Source: Limisphaerales bacterium (GTDB lineage Bacteria; Verrucomicrobiota; Verrucomicrobiia; Limisphaerales; UBA11358). Taken from it: a stretch of DNA of 59,113 nucleotides. Below are positions 1,904-50,731 of the stretch, piece after piece. The number at the start of each line of letters is the position of its first letter. Positions within the stretch are counted from its first letter, which is position 1. The notes under the pieces were generated by a model that saw only the letters and a list, made by a program, of their open reading frames with translations, ran no database searches and was not told the origin of the DNA. The stretch is taken from contig PLAY01000151.1 of assembly GCA_003134375.1 (NCBI GenBank), positions 1 through 59,113 of the forward strand, read 5' to 3'. Both the position numbers and the translations under genes were made by a program.

Positions 1904-1932
1904 CGGGTTAAGCTATCGCAGAAGCGTGCGGA

Positions 1933-1961
1933 TTGACAAGGCTCGTGCGGTTTGGCTTAAT
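1933..1961 (+). promoter_or_regulatory. Putative sigma70 promoter of tRNA-Tyr
   Basis: TTGACA at 1933-1938, 17-bp spacer, TG-n-CTTAAT, about 15 bp upstream of the tRNA. Confidence 0.5.
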
Positions 1962-1976
1962 CCGTGTCCCTTACGT

Positions 1977-2061
1977 GGTAGGTTACCCAAGTGGCCAACG
2001 GGGGCAGACTGTAAATCTGCTGGCTATGCCTTCGATGGTTCGAATCCATCACCTACCACCA
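1977..2061 (+). tRNA. tRNA-Tyr (GTA)
   Basis: Cloverleaf GGTAGGT...ACCTACC-ACCA, anticodon loop CTGTAAA, GTTCGAATC T-loop, long variable arm, encoded CCA. Confidence 0.98.
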
Positions 2062-2062
2062 C
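2004..2062 (+). repeat. attL core of element 1 (inside tRNA-Tyr)
   Basis: Identical to 14510-14568. Confidence 0.95.
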
Positions 2063-2486
2063 TCTTTCTTTACGAATGGAAAGTGGATTTTAGACAAATA
2101 AATCAATTGTTTTAAGGGCATTGCTGTTTTCAACCTTTGCGTTTTGGTGCTTTTGCCGTCTCTTGCGTTCCCGTCCTGTTCGATGCGGATAAAGCAATCA
2201 TAAAGCAATCAATGTCCTAAAGCCGAAAACCGCCCCCGTTTCACCAAGCACACGCAAAACGCGCGTCCAGCGGAATCCAGCGCACGGCAAACGGCATCGT
2301 GGTGAATGTTCGGGTGAAGTTTCGGAATTTAAGGAATCCATTTTTTCGCGGGGGCGACCCGTCCCCGCCGAGTGCCGGGGGGAGGGGGATTTTGCAACCG
2401 TCATTCGTTTAGGAGTCCCGCGCTTTGAGCGAAGCCTGTTTTGAGGCAGGGCTGCTTGCTGCACGGTTTGACATCCGCCCGCGTCA

Positions 2487-2804
2487 TCAGCTTTTACTTT
2501 GGGCGATTAGTGACAGCACATCACTTTCGAGAAAACCACATGACCTTGTTCTCCCTGGCAGCTTTAACTTTTTCAGAATCCCGGACGCGGCAAGCTTATC
2601 CACCGTTCGGAGCGATACTGCCAAAAGACCGGCGACCTCGTCACGACGAATACAACGCTGGCGAACTACCGGCACGGCGTCTGGTTTTAGGGACTCGTCA
2701 TCGCCATTGCGGAGCATCGCCACGAGTCGGGCGCGCTTGGCAGGCGTGATTGTCGGATCGGCCTTCAATCCAGCTTTGAGCAGTTCAATTGTCGTGACAA
2801 GCAT
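2487..2804 (-). CDS. AlpA/excisionase-like HTH protein (paralogue of 11524-11844)
   Basis: IRRDEVAGLLAVSLRTVDKL HTH; aligns end to end with the 11524-11844 product. Confidence 0.8.
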   Translation of the reverse strand: MLVTTIELLKAGLKADPTITPAKRARLVAMLRNGDDESLKPDAVPVVRQRCIRRDEVAGLLAVSLRTVDKLAASGILKKLKLPGRTRSCGFLESDVLSLIAQSKS

Positions 2805-3965
2805 GGTTCAGTTTTAGAATGACTTTATGCAAACCAGCGACCGGGCAGGCGTTCCAGACACACGGGATTTCAAGCGCGGGTGACAGCATTGCCGAAAAGG
2901 AAAGTGTCCTGTCGAGGTGTCCGACTACATCCTGAATGTGATCCAATTGGCTCCGGTTGAACTCGCGGCACGCTGGCATTCGCATGGCATGAACCTACCG
3001 GTTTTGGATGAGGCACGCCCTACCCCTCGTCAAAACGAGGATTCTGCGTCCGCGCTATGGACGCGGTGAAGCTGCGATCTAACCGGCAAATGGCCGCGCC
3101 GATGTCCGTAGCCACGGGCAGTCCGTGCCCAGTCCGTGACCACAGCCGCGTCCGCAGTTTTTCCGTGGGCGCGCACACTCCATGACCCGGCACAATCCGT
3201 GTCCTTGAATAATCCGAAACCATGACCGCTGCCGCAGTCATGGATTGTCCGTGTTCAGTCCGCGTCCGCGTTCTCGCCGTGAACCAACCGTGTCCCGATT
3301 CTTGGACTGGCCGGAAAATGTCCGCGATACGGTGGAATTATTTCCTGTGTGATTTCCAGCCAACGGCTGCGACACTTCCCGCGTGAATCCTTAATCGCCC
3401 TCTGACTCCCGGCGAAGCGAGCATCGTCAAGGTGGAAGTCGCCGGGCATTACGGCGAAACTACCTTGACGACGCGCAGCGAGCCACACAATCGAAGGGCG
3501 ATTCACGCGGAGCCGGAGGTGAACCCGGCGCGGATGCGGACTGGACACGGATAGTTCGAGGTCACGGGCTGGATGCGGACATTCGCGGCCTGGCCACGGT
3601 CACGGACTGGACAAGACCACGGCCATCATGCCGGGCTATGGCGCGGATATTCCGCGTCCAAACCGCGACCGCTTCGCGGACGCTGAATCCTCGTTTTGAC
3701 GAGGAGTAAGGCTTGTCTGCGTAAAAAGCCTTCAAGTGAAGGCGGCAAATGGTGGCAAATGTGCGGTGGCAAAAGGCGACAAATTGCAACAAATTCGTTG
3801 TCGCCTTTTGCCGCAATTTGACACTGGTGCGGATGCGGCTCGATTCATTGGCCGAATGGTTAAGGGGATGGTGTCTTCCAAAAATTGCCCGCAGATAAGG
3901 GCAAGATAAACACGAGATATTCGCCTGAATGGGATGTTGGCGGATGCTCCGCTACTGTCACCGGG

Positions 3966-35562: not shown

Positions 35563-35647
35563 GCGCATATGGTGGAATTGGCAGACACGCTACTTTGAGG
35601 TGGTAGTGCCGAAAGGTGTGCAGGTTCAAGTCCTGCTATGCGCACCA
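35563..35647 (+). tRNA. tRNA-Leu (GAG)
   Basis: GCGCATA/TATGCGC acceptor stem, anticodon loop TTGAGGT, long variable arm, GTTCAAGTC T-loop, CCA. Confidence 0.98.
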
Positions 35648-35727
35648 ATTTTCCTCAAGAAATTGAGGTTTCTGGTGTTCCTGACACAGTTCTGACACAA
35701 GAAACGGCTGAATCCGAAAGCGCGAAA

Positions 35728-37068
35728 GTGAAGTTCCCAAAGCGCATCAAACACCGTGGCCGCGTCCTCGCCACCATTTATGGCAAGTCCAAAGGACGCG
35801 ACTCCTACCGCGTGGCGTGGCAAGTGGCCGGACGGCGGCGCATGGCGTCTTTCCCGTCCTACTCGCTCGCTAAACGTCACGCCGACGGCCTGGTGAAGGA
35901 TTTGGCCAAAGGCTCGCAAGTCACCGCCTTGCATCCCGCGCAAGCCCGCGATGCGCTGGCCGCGCTGGAACGTCTCACGGACTTCTATCGCGCCACTGGC
36001 CGCCGCGTCTCGCTTCTGGCCGCCGTGTCGGAATTCGTCGAGGCATCCGGCAAGCTGGGCGGGCGCACAATGGGTGAAGCCGTCGAGGGTTACTTGCGCA
36101 CCGTCGCCAGCGTGAAGCGCGAAGACATCAAGGAAGCCGTCGCGGAATTTTTACTGGCCGATGCACCCCGCACCAAAGCCGCCGATGGCCAACGGGCGCA
36201 ACTATCCGGCAAATACGCCTACAACCGCAAACTGCAACTCAACCGTTTTGCCGACACGTTCCCAAACACCGCCGTCAATGAACTGAGCAAAGAACACCTC
36301 GACAAGTTCATTGAAAAGCTTGGCGAATTGAAATCAAAGTCCCGCAACCGCCGCGCCGCAACTTCTGCCAAAAGCCGCAACCACTACCGCGCCGCCATTC
36401 GGCAATTTCTGCAATGGGCAGTCCGTAAAGATTATCTCGCCCCGACGCATCGCTTGAACGAAGCCGACGCCATGCGCCCCGAACGCGCCAACACCGCCGC
36501 CGTGGAATTTTACACACCGGGCGAATTGGCCGCGCTGCTGGCAGCTTCCAAAGACGACCTGAAACCACTGCGCCCGATCATCGCCATTGGCGGGCTGGCC
36601 GGACTGCGCACCGCCGAATTATTGCGCTTGGATTGGGCGGACGTATGGCGCGTGCGGGGACACATTGAAGTTACGGCGGGCAAAGCCAAGACGCGGCAAC
36701 GCCGCCTTGTGGAAATCTGCCCCGCGCTGGCCGCGTGGCTTGAAGCATTCCGAACGCTGACGACCGGCAAACTCTGGACCGGCCACGAAATCACGTTCCA
36801 ACAGCATTTTGTGGAACTGTGCAAAGACGCGGACGTGACGCGCATAGCCAACGGACTGCGCCACGCATATTGCACCTACCACTTTGCCGCCAACGCCAAC
36901 GAAAACCAGACTGCGCAACAAGCGGGCAACTCGCCCGCGCAGATTCACGCACATTACAAAGGACTGGCCACGAAAGCCGACGCGAAGAAATGGTTCAACG
37001 TGCGGCCAGCGCGCACGGCAACGAATGTAATTTCGCTGTCGGCTGCTTCACGCAATAAAACGCATTGA
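35728..37068 (+). CDS. Tyrosine recombinase/integrase of element 2
   Basis: GLRTAE, NGLRH, GNS and HY catalytic-position motifs. GTG start at 35728 is preferred because synonymous-type conservation with the relic paralogue begins there; the frame stays open back to the ATG at 35638 inside the tRNA. Confidence 0.95.
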   Translation: MKFPKRIKHRGRVLATIYGKSKGRDSYRVAWQVAGRRRMASFPSYSLAKRHADGLVKDLAKGSQVTALHPAQARDALAALERLTDFYRATGRRVSLLAAVSEFVEASGKLGGRTMGEAVEGYLRTVASVKREDIKEAVAEFLLADAPRTKAADGQRAQLSGKYAYNRKLQLNRFADTFPNTAVNELSKEHLDKFIEKLGELKSKSRNRRAATSAKSRNHYRAAIRQFLQWAVRKDYLAPTHRLNEADAMRPERANTAAVEFYTPGELAALLAASKDDLKPLRPIIAIGGLAGLRTAELLRLDWADVWRVRGHIEVTAGKAKTRQRRLVEICPALAAWLEAFRTLTTGKLWTGHEITFQQHFVELCKDADVTRIANGLRHAYCTYHFAANANENQTAQQAGNSPAQIHAHYKGLATKADAKKWFNVRPARTATNVISLSAASRNKTH

Positions 37069-49511: not shown

Positions 49512-49819
49512 ACTTGGAACTTTCCATCCGCGAGCATTTCGGCAGTCATTTGGCCGACGGTGCCAAAGCAGCCGAGTTTCGCCTGGGGCGCATTGATCCT
49601 TATGTGGAGATTTGTCCTCAAATCATTTTGGACTTCACGGGCGTTCGCAACGCCAACAGTTCCTTCATAAATGCGTTGGTTGCTGGCTTAATTGAGCAAC
49701 ACAACGTGAGTGTTTTGAAGAAAGTTGTTTTCAAAGGGTGCAATCCCTCGATTCAGGTTTTGATTCAAGCCGCCGTGGAATTGGGCGTTCAGAAAATCGC
49801 CGGTCGGGTCAATGCTTGA
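49508..49819 (+). CDS. STAS-like (DUF4325-type) protein
   Basis: IILDFTGVRNANSSFINALV pattern; GTGA-coupled to the ATPase gene. Confidence 0.85.
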   Translation: MNLELSIREHFGSHLADGAKAAEFRLGRIDPYVEICPQIILDFTGVRNANSSFINALVAGLIEQHNVSVLKKVVFKGCNPSIQVLIQAAVELGVQKIAGRVNA

Positions 49820-50064
49820 TTACTGCGCCTCAACCGTCTTGGGTTCAATTGGGTAAATCCCAACAATAAGTTTCGCAGAATATTGCCCTTTGTCTGAAAA
49901 CCTCCCTTGCGCTGGCGACGGCGTTTGCGCATTGCCCCCCCCAGCCCGACACCCCGCCCAGACGGTCGGCCAAAAAAGAAATCTTTGTTGCCGGACACCC
50001 GCCATGACGCCCCGTGTGATTCGCTGGCTTGGGCAGGACGCGCTTTGATTGGCTGGACGGGCTG

Positions 50065-50137
50065 GACACAGCCCTGACACAGAATCAAGCCCTGACACAG
50101 CACTGACACAGGCCAAATCCCCGACACAGCCCGACAC
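50065..50137 (+). repeat. GACACAG repeat array (candidate integrase arm sites)
   Basis: Six GACAC(AG) copies near attR; the same CTGACACA motif occurs twice at 35681-35700 near attL. Confidence 0.75.
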
Positions 50138-50264
50138 GTCTTTTTCTACTGCTAGTTGCTCACAGATGCCAGAAAATGCTTGCAATCAAACGGCAATGCC
50201 GTAGTATCACTAGCAGGCCAGTATGAAGAAAGGCAATTATGAGCAATGACGAAAACACCCTGTT

Positions 50265-50301
50265 TGCAGGTTCAAGTCCTGCTATGCGCACCAATTTTCC
50301 T
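50265..50301 (+). repeat. attR core of element 2
   Basis: 37-bp exact duplicate of 35619-35655. Confidence 0.95.
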
Positions 50302-50375
50302 GAGAAAATCGGGCAATCTCAGGAAATTTGCACAGAGTTTGCACAAAATGTTGCCCGTCCTTCGGACAGACGTGT

Positions 50376-50552
50376 GACCTGCCACGCTACGCGGTAGGAA
50401 TCGCGTCCCTTGCACCTGCCGTAGATCGTGGCAAGCACTCGGCCACGGTATTTGATGCGCTTCGGATATTTCACGTTTGCGCCTTCGGATTCAGCCGTTT
50501 CTTGTGTCGGTACTGTGTCAGCAACACCAGATGCCTCAATTTCTTGAGTTTA
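50376..50552 (-). pseudogene. Relic left end and first 33 codons of a paralogous integrase at tRNA-Leu(TAG)
   Basis: VKYPKRIKYRGRVLATIYGRCKGRDSYRVAWQV aligns with the element 2 integrase N-terminus; the upstream arm repeats are also conserved. Confidence 0.88.
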
Positions 50553-50636
50553 TGGTGCGCGCGAGAGGACTTGAACCTCCAACCCTTGCGGGACCAGATC
50601 CTAAGTCTGGCGCGTCTGCCATTCCGCCACGCGCGC
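50553..50636 (-). tRNA. tRNA-Leu (TAG)
   Basis: GCGCGCG/CGCGCGC acceptor stem, anticodon loop CTTAGGA, GTTCAAGTC T-loop, CCA. Confidence 0.98.
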
Positions 50637-50731
50637 AACCGGCATCAAATTGCGCCGCGCACTGCAGAATCTCAAGCCTGGTTTTGCAGCGCGCGATTGC
50701 GCAAGCCGGAAGGTTTGTTTACGTTCAGGTC

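Follow-up and report, generated by a model that had tools for sequence, protein, structure and literature searches.

The right end of a 14.6-kb element integrated in a tRNA-Leu gene of a Limisphaerales bacterium carries an outward-facing promoter-like hexamer pair and an ATG, and the integrase gene lies at the opposite end of the same element. The locus raises the question of what excision brings together: a promoter and an integrase gene that has its own start codon, or two parts of a single reading frame that is interrupted by the att core. The preliminary description of the window, that is, of the whole 59,113-nt stretch of DNA analyzed here (contig C23 of a 4.16-Mb, 201-contig assembly), had proposed that a promoter and an in-frame start both lie beyond attP, and had placed less trust in the start. 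The evidence given below points to both, and it is probable that the far-side promoter and ATG yield a long integrase in the circle, while the integrated form is limited to a short one.

Organization of element 2 and its ends

The element, here called element 2, is inserted in tRNA-Leu(GAG), and its ends are marked by an exact 37-nt repeat. The following features make up the two ends.

35563 to 35647, forward strand: tRNA-Leu(GAG), the integration target, called by ARAGORN; its last 29 nt (3') are shared with the att core.
35619 to 35655, forward strand: attL core, an exact 37-nt direct repeat consisting of the T-arm, the acceptor 3' strand and 8 nt past the tRNA end.
35656 to 35727, forward strand: P-arm leader, which separates the core from the internal start and in which the integrase frame is open.
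35728 to 37068, forward strand: integrase, short form, 446 amino acids from a GTG, with weak Pfam PF00589/PF02899 matches.
50063 to 50138, forward strand: P'-arm cluster of six arm-type repeats, TGGACACA, three copies of CTGACACA, CCGACACA and CCGACACG.
50180 to 50207, forward strand: outward-facing promoter-like pair TTGCAA / 16 nt / TAGTAT, recognized by reading the sequence and by its conservation in homologous right ends.
50226 to 50264, forward strand: Shine-Dalgarno-like AAGAAAGG, ATG 50239 and the pre-core codons MSNDENTLF.
50265 to 50301, forward strand: attR core, the displaced tRNA 3' fragment, which reads (F)AGSSPAMRTNFP within the long open reading frame (ORF).

The att repeat was called by the repeat finder at 35616-35663 and 50262-50309, and exact identity covers 37 nt of it (35619-35655 = 50265-50301). 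TTGCAA occupies positions 50180-50185 and TAGTAT positions 50202-50207, with a spacer of 16 nt, and the Shine-Dalgarno-like sequence occupies positions 50226-50233. ATG 50239 is in frame with, and 45 nt (15 codons) upstream of, ATG 50284, whose equivalent at 35638 lies within the 3' end of tRNA-Leu(GAG) and begins a 476-codon ORF. When the left flank of attR and the right flank of attL were joined in silico, the product, MSNDENTLFAGSSPAMRTNFPQEIEV..., was in frame with the integrase. The preliminary description was accurate on all of these points: its hexamers, its ATG and its 15-codon spacing match the sequence at every coordinate, the excision product that it predicted joins the far-side promoter and start to the integrase ORF, and the integrated integrase does sit behind a co-oriented tRNA-Leu gene that is directly upstream. 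Gene callers place integrase starts inside the tRNA, or read through the tRNA.

Two CTGACACA arm-type repeats are present in the P-arm leader (35681 and 35692), and the P'-arm repeats are oriented like them; in the whole window there are 8 copies of CTGACACA, compared with 0.97 expected. The short repeats that flank the core are particular to each element, CTGACACA in element 2 and TTGCACA in a second element of the same genome (on contig C5, described below), and other lineages have TTGCACA or CCGCACA at the equivalent arm positions. We read the CTGACACA-type and TTGCACA repeats flanking the core as putative arm-type integrase sites. A small hairpin followed by a T-run is located at 35653-35668, just after tRNA-Leu(GAG), and some lineages have a strong hairpin at this position. 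That a terminator hairpin like the one behind the tRNA in ICEKp1 is conserved as a general feature was rejected, because 66 loci show a sequence motif and no covarying stem. Folding of 35648-35760 in search of a structured RNA in the leader gave a z of 0.13 relative to shuffles, and in the interval 49700-50700 Rfam matched tRNA-Leu(TAG) only.

Element 2 is a member of a large Limisphaerales family of integrative elements of soil Verrucomicrobia, 6 to 15 kb in size, that insert at the 3' ends of tRNA genes. In the same genome, integrase paralogues were found beside tRNA-Leu(CAG) on contig C5 (46% identity) and beside tRNA-Leu(CAA) on contig C140. The C5 element, in tRNA-Leu(CAG), is 8.25 kb long, has a 26-nt repeat at its ends and shares the layout of element 2; the 14-mer AATGCTTGCAATCA has only two copies in the 4.16-Mb genome, each at a distance of about 90 nt upstream of the attR core in one of these two elements, and the sequence GA(A/G)AACACCCTGTT just 5' of the core is common to both right ends. 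Integrase relatives are encoded by 548 stretches of public genomes (one per species), and among the records listed they come mostly from Verrucomicrobiota, chiefly Limisphaerales/Pedosphaera metagenome-assembled genomes (MAGs). The integrase lies directly behind a co-oriented tRNA gene in 69 loci, the targets of which include Leu, Val, Met, Gln, Arg, His, Asn, Gly, Pro, Lys and Ser tRNA genes, and in most of these loci the distance from the tRNA end to the V/M-[KR]-[FYW]-P start is exactly 80 nt. The relatives in IMG/VR were only about 30% identical or lower, save for two short partial matches at 39%. Searches of the backbone ORFs of element 2 against Pfam, PHROGs and NCBIfam matched only a methyltransferase, a PIN domain and an ATPase-like cargo protein; because the backbone is thus nearly matchless, the element type was inferred from relatives with DUF3987 or AAA_25 primase/helicase-like genes.

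The integrase frame is kept open across attP

The reading frame was followed through 24 attP sequences, 19 of which were joined in silico and 5 of which were contiguous in public contigs, 3 of these being apparently circular. The 19 joined sequences came from 17 elements with both ends in the retrieved DNA and from 2 elements for which mismatches were allowed in the displaced tRNA fragment. The far-side ATG is conserved in the context M-S-N-x-E-N... or M-N-G-N-E-T..., and from this ATG the integrase frame was stop-free in 23 of the 24 sequences, compared with 0 of 24 for each of the other two frames; these 24 sequences form 20 similarity clusters (threshold, 0.85), and the counts treat phylogenetically non-independent relatives without a tree. 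Mononucleotide shuffles of each attP interval remained open with a probability of 0.04 to 0.16. The sole exception is L015, in which a point mutation has turned a TCA of the displaced tRNA fragment into TAA; its near-twin, L016, is intact.

Changes in length within this interval also respect the frame. The distances from the far-side ATG to the internal start were 132, 135, 141, 147, 156, 159, 168 and 177 nt, all of them multiples of three, and in L024 and L056 a shift of -1 just before the core is followed by a shift of +1 just after it, with the core in another frame and the ORF back in phase. In seven gap-free sequences, pairwise differences at codon positions 1, 2 and 3 amounted to 40, 28 and 66 in the far-side segment, to 195, 187 and 248 in the leader, and to 227, 267 and 338 in the first 30 integrase codons, so that the third-position excess was alike in the far-side segment, the leader and the integrase body. 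A Glu-Asn pair before the core was invariant among the standard-frame sequences with an EN-type leader, and its codons alternated between GAA and GAG and between AAC and AAT. Two start architectures were distinguished: in the group of element 2 there is a 31-nt leader with AAAGG 5 nt upstream of the ATG, and in the group of the C5 element the ATG lies 7 to 9 nt past the -10 hexamer, which suggests a leaderless mRNA.

A JGI metagenome sample was searched with a pattern that specified only AAAGG...ATG and six codons and that left the distance from the ATG to the T-arm unconstrained, and 80 loci were obtained. Among 66 distinct P' arms from these loci, the T-arm motif GGTTCRA was recognizable in 56; it lay 30, 39 or 51 nt after the ATG, and hence in frame despite insertions of +9 and +21 nt, in 55 of them, and 61 nt after the ATG in the remaining one. 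Frame conservation across attP in homologous elements was the check that the preliminary description had proposed, and the in-frame far-side start, which it had considered the less certain part, is borne out by the single open frame, by the distances in multiples of three and by the contiguous long ORFs described next.

Contiguous joined genes in public DNA

The protein collection was searched with the in-silico long form of the integrase, with only residues 1 to 70 being scored. Five integrases with the long N terminus were found, P0016, P0019, P0023, P0043 and P0051, and their starts read MSNDENPLFAGSSPAKRT..., MSNDENPFVVGSTPATRT..., MSDNENPLVAGSSPAKRT..., MSNDENPLLVGSSPTSGA... and (M)TQETITGNPENPPFAGSSP.... 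No tRNA gene was found on the contigs of these five integrases, which show the order arm repeats, promoter-like pair, ATG, core, arm repeats and GTG-KFP. Three contigs have terminal direct overlaps of the k-1 type, namely, L117 (7,899 bp; 30 nt), L118 (7,931 bp; 30 nt) and L119 (14,242 bp; 55 nt). Overlaps of this kind are typical of circular assemblies, and collapsed tandem arrays could be an alternative source; whether these contigs are circles or collapsed arrays, the long ORF is contiguous DNA. The junctions of L121 and L156 are hybrids, with different arm-repeat types on the two sides and the frame still kept, and represent neighbors in a tandem array. In the metagenome sample, the far-side ORF continued in frame into an integrase in five loci. 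A protein search with the long N terminus of the tRNA-Met element L057 returned integrated-form proteins only, and L083, in which the integrase is frameshifted, was left out as a protein query.

The integrase and its conserved internal start

The match of the integrase to Pfam PF00589 (23.5 bits) was below the cut-off of 27.1, that to PF02899 was 22.8 bits (cut-off, 22.3), and the NCBIfam Xer models gave partial matches only. The AlphaFold2 (AF2) model was computed for the long form P0023 from a 29-sequence alignment and had an overall mean pLDDT of 75. In a Foldseek comparison, full-length lambda Int (1z1b_A) was its best match (E = 1.9e-7; probability, 1.0; 419 aligned columns). The model places the integrase among the lambda-Int-like tyrosine recombinases and has a beta-sheet-plus-helix domain at the N terminus, which, with the putative arm-type repeats on both sides of the core, fits a heterobivalent integrase. 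In alignment A1, the candidate catalytic residues R294, K321, R378, H379 and Y410 were invariant, and the usual His of HxxR was replaced by an invariant Asn, N375, in the motif NGLRH.

The internal start is conserved at the DNA level. At this position 48 loci have GTG, 12 have ATG, and 5 have ATG or GTG one codon earlier (65 alignable loci in total); the codons GTC, GTT and GTA were never found there, and within these integrase genes GTG accounts for only 35% of Val codons. Because the position always has GTG or ATG and never the other Val codons, GTG 35728 is taken to be a conserved start codon. In the P0023 model, residues 1 to 45 have pLDDT values of 30 to 38 and no secondary structure, and the fold begins at about residue 46 to 50, which corresponds to the internal start, with four strands and a helix (the beta-sheet-plus-helix N domain, residues 50 to 104), followed by the core-binding and catalytic domains. 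Because the predicted fold begins at the internal start, the 45-residue extension is probably a disordered tail, although the low N-terminal confidence is due in part to the shallowness of the alignment there, where 5 of the 29 rows carry the extension. Furthermore, the core-encoded peptide varies with the tRNA target and is in another frame in L024 and L056, and the extension is therefore not a conserved domain. Conservation of the internal start implies that the enzyme can do without the extension and, in principle, that the upstream ATG may go unused. The preliminary description had let codon-type conservation begin at GTG 35728; a real conserved start is located there, and the leader upstream of it has a third-position excess as well.

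These observations bear directly on an explanation in which integration switches the promoter only, the sequence that crosses attP being a long 5' untranslated region (UTR) and translation beginning at the GTG or ATG of position 35728 in both states, with the upstream ATG and the open frame as by-products of constraints on the DNA (arm sites or the tRNA core, for example). A start codon conserved in all 65 alignable loci, a predicted fold that starts at it, an extension that lacks a conserved fold and whose core-encoded part shifts with the tRNA target, and the example of ICEKp1 and ICEclc, in which just a UTR crosses attP, all agree with such an explanation, and DNA-level constraints in the leader (arm-type repeats, the tRNA core and the post-tRNA motif) could hold part of the frame open without translation. 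The same explanation leaves little reason for one frame to be open in 23 of 24 attP sequences and each alternative frame in none, for all insertions and deletions to be multiples of three with a compensated -1/+1 pair in one lineage, for a third-position excess like that of the integrase body, or for the Shine-Dalgarno-like AAAGG that one group has 5 nt ahead of its ATG and the distance of 7 to 9 nt that the other group has from the -10 hexamer to its ATG. We therefore regard a switch of the promoter without a switch of the start codon as rather unlikely.

The putative far-side promoter

The promoter-like pair is kept in place at all 21 of the homologous right ends that were aligned by hand, which represent insertions into at least eight different tRNA genes. 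The TTG of the -35 hexamer was invariant (21/21), and in the -10 hexamer the first T was present in 19 and the A at the second position in 20 of the 21 right ends, the anchors having been set by eye with a spacer of 16 to 18 nt allowed, a procedure that favors the finding of TA. Automated best-match promoter calling gave inconsistent sites, and hexamers anchored in the alignment, which involve judgment, were used instead. The 16- to 18-nt spacers are unrelated in sequence between elements, and in the closest relative of element 2, L010, both hexamers are retained and the spacer is replaced. The pair typically found upstream in the reconstructed attP sequences is TTGCAA or TTGACA, a spacer of 16 to 18 nt, and TAnnnT. 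At the level of sequence, this conservation supports the promoter beyond attP that the preliminary description had favored.

A promoter at this end might serve other purposes, namely, host genes, the next element of a tandem array, replication or control of the arm sites, its junction with the integrase being incidental. In the integrated state it does read outward, the far-side ORF entering an unrelated host flank (the attR state) in 62 of 68 usable metagenome loci, and in tandem arrays it reads into the neighboring integrase. Since elements with unrelated host flanks nevertheless agree in promoter, ATG and frame relative to the T-arm, and since the integrase across attP is the sole constant downstream partner, we consider such a role very unlikely to explain the arrangement. 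That the hexamers and the in-frame ATG are coincidental and functionless is scarcely credible: by its own score the pair of element 2 is unremarkable (8 of 12 consensus positions, with 123 sites equal or better in the 59-kb window, and absent from the list produced by a promoter scan of the window), and it rises above chance because promoter, ATG and frame are kept in more than 20 lineages and in 66 metagenome right ends, which argues strongly against coincidence.

Proposed expression of the integrase in the two states

The favored explanation, a gene whose 5' end is parted from the rest by integration, would operate as follows. The attP core lies inside the 5' end of the integrase frame. The P' arm, which becomes the right end (attR) upon integration, carries the putative promoter and ribosome-binding context as well as the ATG and the first 9 to 27 codons, and the remainder of the gene lies across the core. 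In the circular form, transcription from a sigma-70-type promoter (50180-50207) would be followed by translation that begins at ATG 50239 and runs across the core and the leader into the integrase, and the product, a 491-amino-acid long isoform, would be supplied when integration is needed. Integration would take away both promoter and start, and only the short isoform could then be made, from GTG 35728, on transcripts that arise upstream of the tRNA, most likely by read-through from tRNA-Leu. Dependence of the integrated integrase on such upstream transcripts would mean low expression, which would stabilize the integrated state. The sequences themselves show the layout and its conservation, the maintained frame, the contiguous attP forms and the conserved internal start codon; from these we infer that the promoter is active, that each of the starts is translated, and how strongly the integrase is expressed in each state. 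Selection seems to keep an open frame that delivers ribosomes to the integrase, rather than a folded domain.

A further proposal, which we regard as speculative and doubtful, is that the two isoforms differ in function, the long one, made by the circle, being tuned for integration and the short one, made in the integrated state, acting with a directionality factor in excision. The att-spanning gene would then be a sensor of directionality or copy state, a bacterial and non-suicidal counterpart of the SSV arrangement, and the Glu-Asn pair would be part of a functional tail beside the arm-binding domain.

Comparison with known systems

[quoted passage not shown] The present family resembles these integrative and conjugative elements (ICEs) in that the integrase adjoins a tRNA gene in the same orientation and lies behind that gene when integrated, in that an outward promoter at the opposite end would meet the integrase only in the excised circle (here a reading at the sequence level), and in the small stem-loop right after the tRNA, which is found in element 2 and is not family-wide. 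It differs in what crosses attP: in the ICEs this is just a 5' UTR, the start codon and ORF being on the integrase side, whereas in the verrucomicrobial family the ATG and 9 to 27 codons are beyond attP as well, and the gene contains a second conserved start. In addition, the present integrase is not P4-like and has NGLRH in place of HxxR, and the elements, known so far from their sequences, are small (6 to 15 kb) and have hosts among the Verrucomicrobiota.

[quoted passage not shown] As in these, attP here falls within the 5'-terminal part of the integrase ORF, the long ORF spanning the core in 23 of 24 attP sequences, and integration would part the promoter and an N-terminal coding piece from the catalytic part, the intact gene being present only in the free element. 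The SSV1-type integrases, however, are archaeal and belong to Phage_integr_3 (PF16795), and in them an essential part is lost and the split gene is inactive, whereas the present family would lose only 45 residues that are predicted to be disordered, and translation from the conserved internal start should still produce a complete enzyme. No sequence relationship to the SSV1 type was found, the Pfam scan of the integrase giving PF00589 and PF02899 only. Because the Pfam family is a different one, the host is not archaeal and no essential part is removed, the present family is placed outside the SSV type; the comparison with SSV1 made in the preliminary description is apt as an analogy and does not extend to family membership.

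Among integrase ORFs that extend across attP, those of Mx8 and SSV have been noted previously (PMC4383910). Mx8 IntP/IntX (PMC6070905) is similar to the present case in being a bacterial tyrosine integrase ORF that spans attP and in that integration alters the protein that can be made, but the Mx8 core is at the 3' end and the C terminus is swapped, whereas here the 5' end is affected, with the promoter and the start. The promoter switch and attP-spanning integrase ORFs are thus already known. What is new is that a bacterial lambda-like integrase gene is partitioned at its 5' end, that its promoter and start are split off with this end, and that a nested conserved start backs up the arrangement.

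Gene output depends on the free or integrated state in several other systems as well, in which recombination at att, or at the ends of the element, brings together or parts an expression signal acting in cis or one end of a coding region; the parts involved differ. In sib retroregulation of phage lambda, a 3' RNA-processing site is joined or separated by att recombination; in the integration-dependent immunity of the mycobacteriophages BPs and Brujita, it is the 3' end of the repressor gene that lies at att in BPs; and in the junction promoters of insertion sequence (IS) circles, the -35 and -10 halves are split between the two IS ends.

The known promoter switch, demonstrated only recently for proteobacterial ICEs, would gain a second layer in this family, in which the translation start and N-terminal codons are displaced as well. 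The rule that confines self-disrupting recombinase genes to archaea (PMC8371274) would also need revision in view of a widespread bacterial family in which the 5' partition is combined with a nested rescue start. The family constitutes a natural experiment that could show a "suicidal" arrangement evolving while excision is kept. For annotation, tools that search for genomic islands should allow for ORFs extending across attP.

Surroundings of attR

Three further features follow the attR core of element 2.

50302 to 50376, forward strand: P-arm stub of a second, tandem element, with two copies of TTGCACA, a hairpin and a GTG at 50372.
50377 to 50552, reverse strand: inverted relic, consisting of the leader and 33 codons of an element-2-like integrase, adjoining tRNA-Leu(TAG).
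50553 to 50636, reverse strand: tRNA-Leu(TAG), called by ARAGORN.

The relic has a leader of 78 nt rather than 80 nt, and a TAA immediately follows its CCA end. The preliminary description had counted this stop against an N-terminal extension. The stop is real, and it results from a 2-nt deletion in a truncated pseudogene that keeps about 33 to 35 codons; it therefore weighs little, and it was rejected as counter-evidence. The stub is joined to the inverted relic at about 50377, and the far-side ORF of element 2 reads through the stub in frame, giving a 52-amino-acid ORF (50239-50397). In tandem arrays, where the far-side promoter would read in frame into the neighboring integrase, such an arrangement may couple the mobility of tandem elements. 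The closest relative of element 2, L010, has the same stub in a longer form, which runs on into VRFPVTIRHR....

Hybrid junctions in tandem arrays

Two loci with relatives of the element 2 integrase, L121 (over its whole length) and L156, are hybrid junctions: one element contributes the right end, which leads through a tRNA core into the integrase of a different element. The types of arm repeat, the putative arm-type integrase sites, differ between the two sides of these junctions, and the long ORF, which joins the far-side frame to the integrase, stays in frame across both of them. The neighboring integrase may therefore be driven by the promoter and start codon of the other element, and in tandem arrays, the promoter and start of one element may thus serve the integrase of the adjacent one.

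Remnants beside element 2 and in related loci

Two remnants lie to the right of attR in the window:

50302-50397: integrase-leader stub of a second, tandem element, with a hairpin, two copies of TTGCACA, and GTG at 50372

50377-50636, minus strand: relic of an element-2-like integrase, comprising the leader and 33 codons, adjoining tRNA-Leu(TAG)

The stub, whose hairpin has the arms TTTCCTGAGA...TCTCAGGAAA, is read in frame by the far-side ORF of element 2, which starts at ATG 50239. A longer version of the same stub (VRFPVTIRHRSSMAKIY...) is retained in L010, the locus of the closest relative; the tandem partner of element 2 was thus lost through deletion in the window genome. The relic is fused head to head with the stub, and its leader contains a TAA that results from a 2-nt deletion immediately after the tRNA end. 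In the attR of the related locus L015, at and just upstream of about 19955, the displaced tRNA fragment carries GGTTAAAGTCC in place of GGTTCAAGTCC; this replacement reduces att identity to 20 nt and places a TAA in the long ORF. L015 is probably an immobilized copy; its twin, L016, is intact.

A further integrase gene was found in the same genome, on the contig carrying the paralogous element in tRNA-Leu(CAG):

L002 5-1219 (contig C5 of G000, about 1926-3140), minus strand: second 404-aa integrase gene, on the 5' side of tRNA-Leu(CAG)

This gene is divergent from the tRNA gene and unrelated to the integrase on its other side, and tRNA-Leu(CAG) therefore seems to lie between two different mobile elements, one on each flank.

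Conserved motifs and a short overlapping ORF

Directly 3' of the tRNA end there is a conserved motif, TTTTCCTnAnGAAAnTGAGG (35648-35668 in the window and the equivalent place in 66 loci). In element 2, the motif folds into a hairpin followed by a T-run; across lineages, there is a strong 10- to 11-bp hairpin in some and none in others. The motif might serve as a protein site close to the core, stand in for the tRNA terminator, or encode the peptide F-P-x-E-I/N-E. In the family alignment, NGLRH is invariant at the usual HxxR site of tyrosine recombinases (columns N375-R378; window about 36850-36862), and, judging from the aligned sequences, Asn seems to take the place of the first catalytic His in this integrase family.

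A short out-of-frame ORF at 50223-50249 (ATG AAG AAA GGC AAT TAT GAG CAA TGA) starts 16 nt upstream of ATG 50239 and overlaps it. It is probably without meaning, since its ATG is replaced by ATT in L010.
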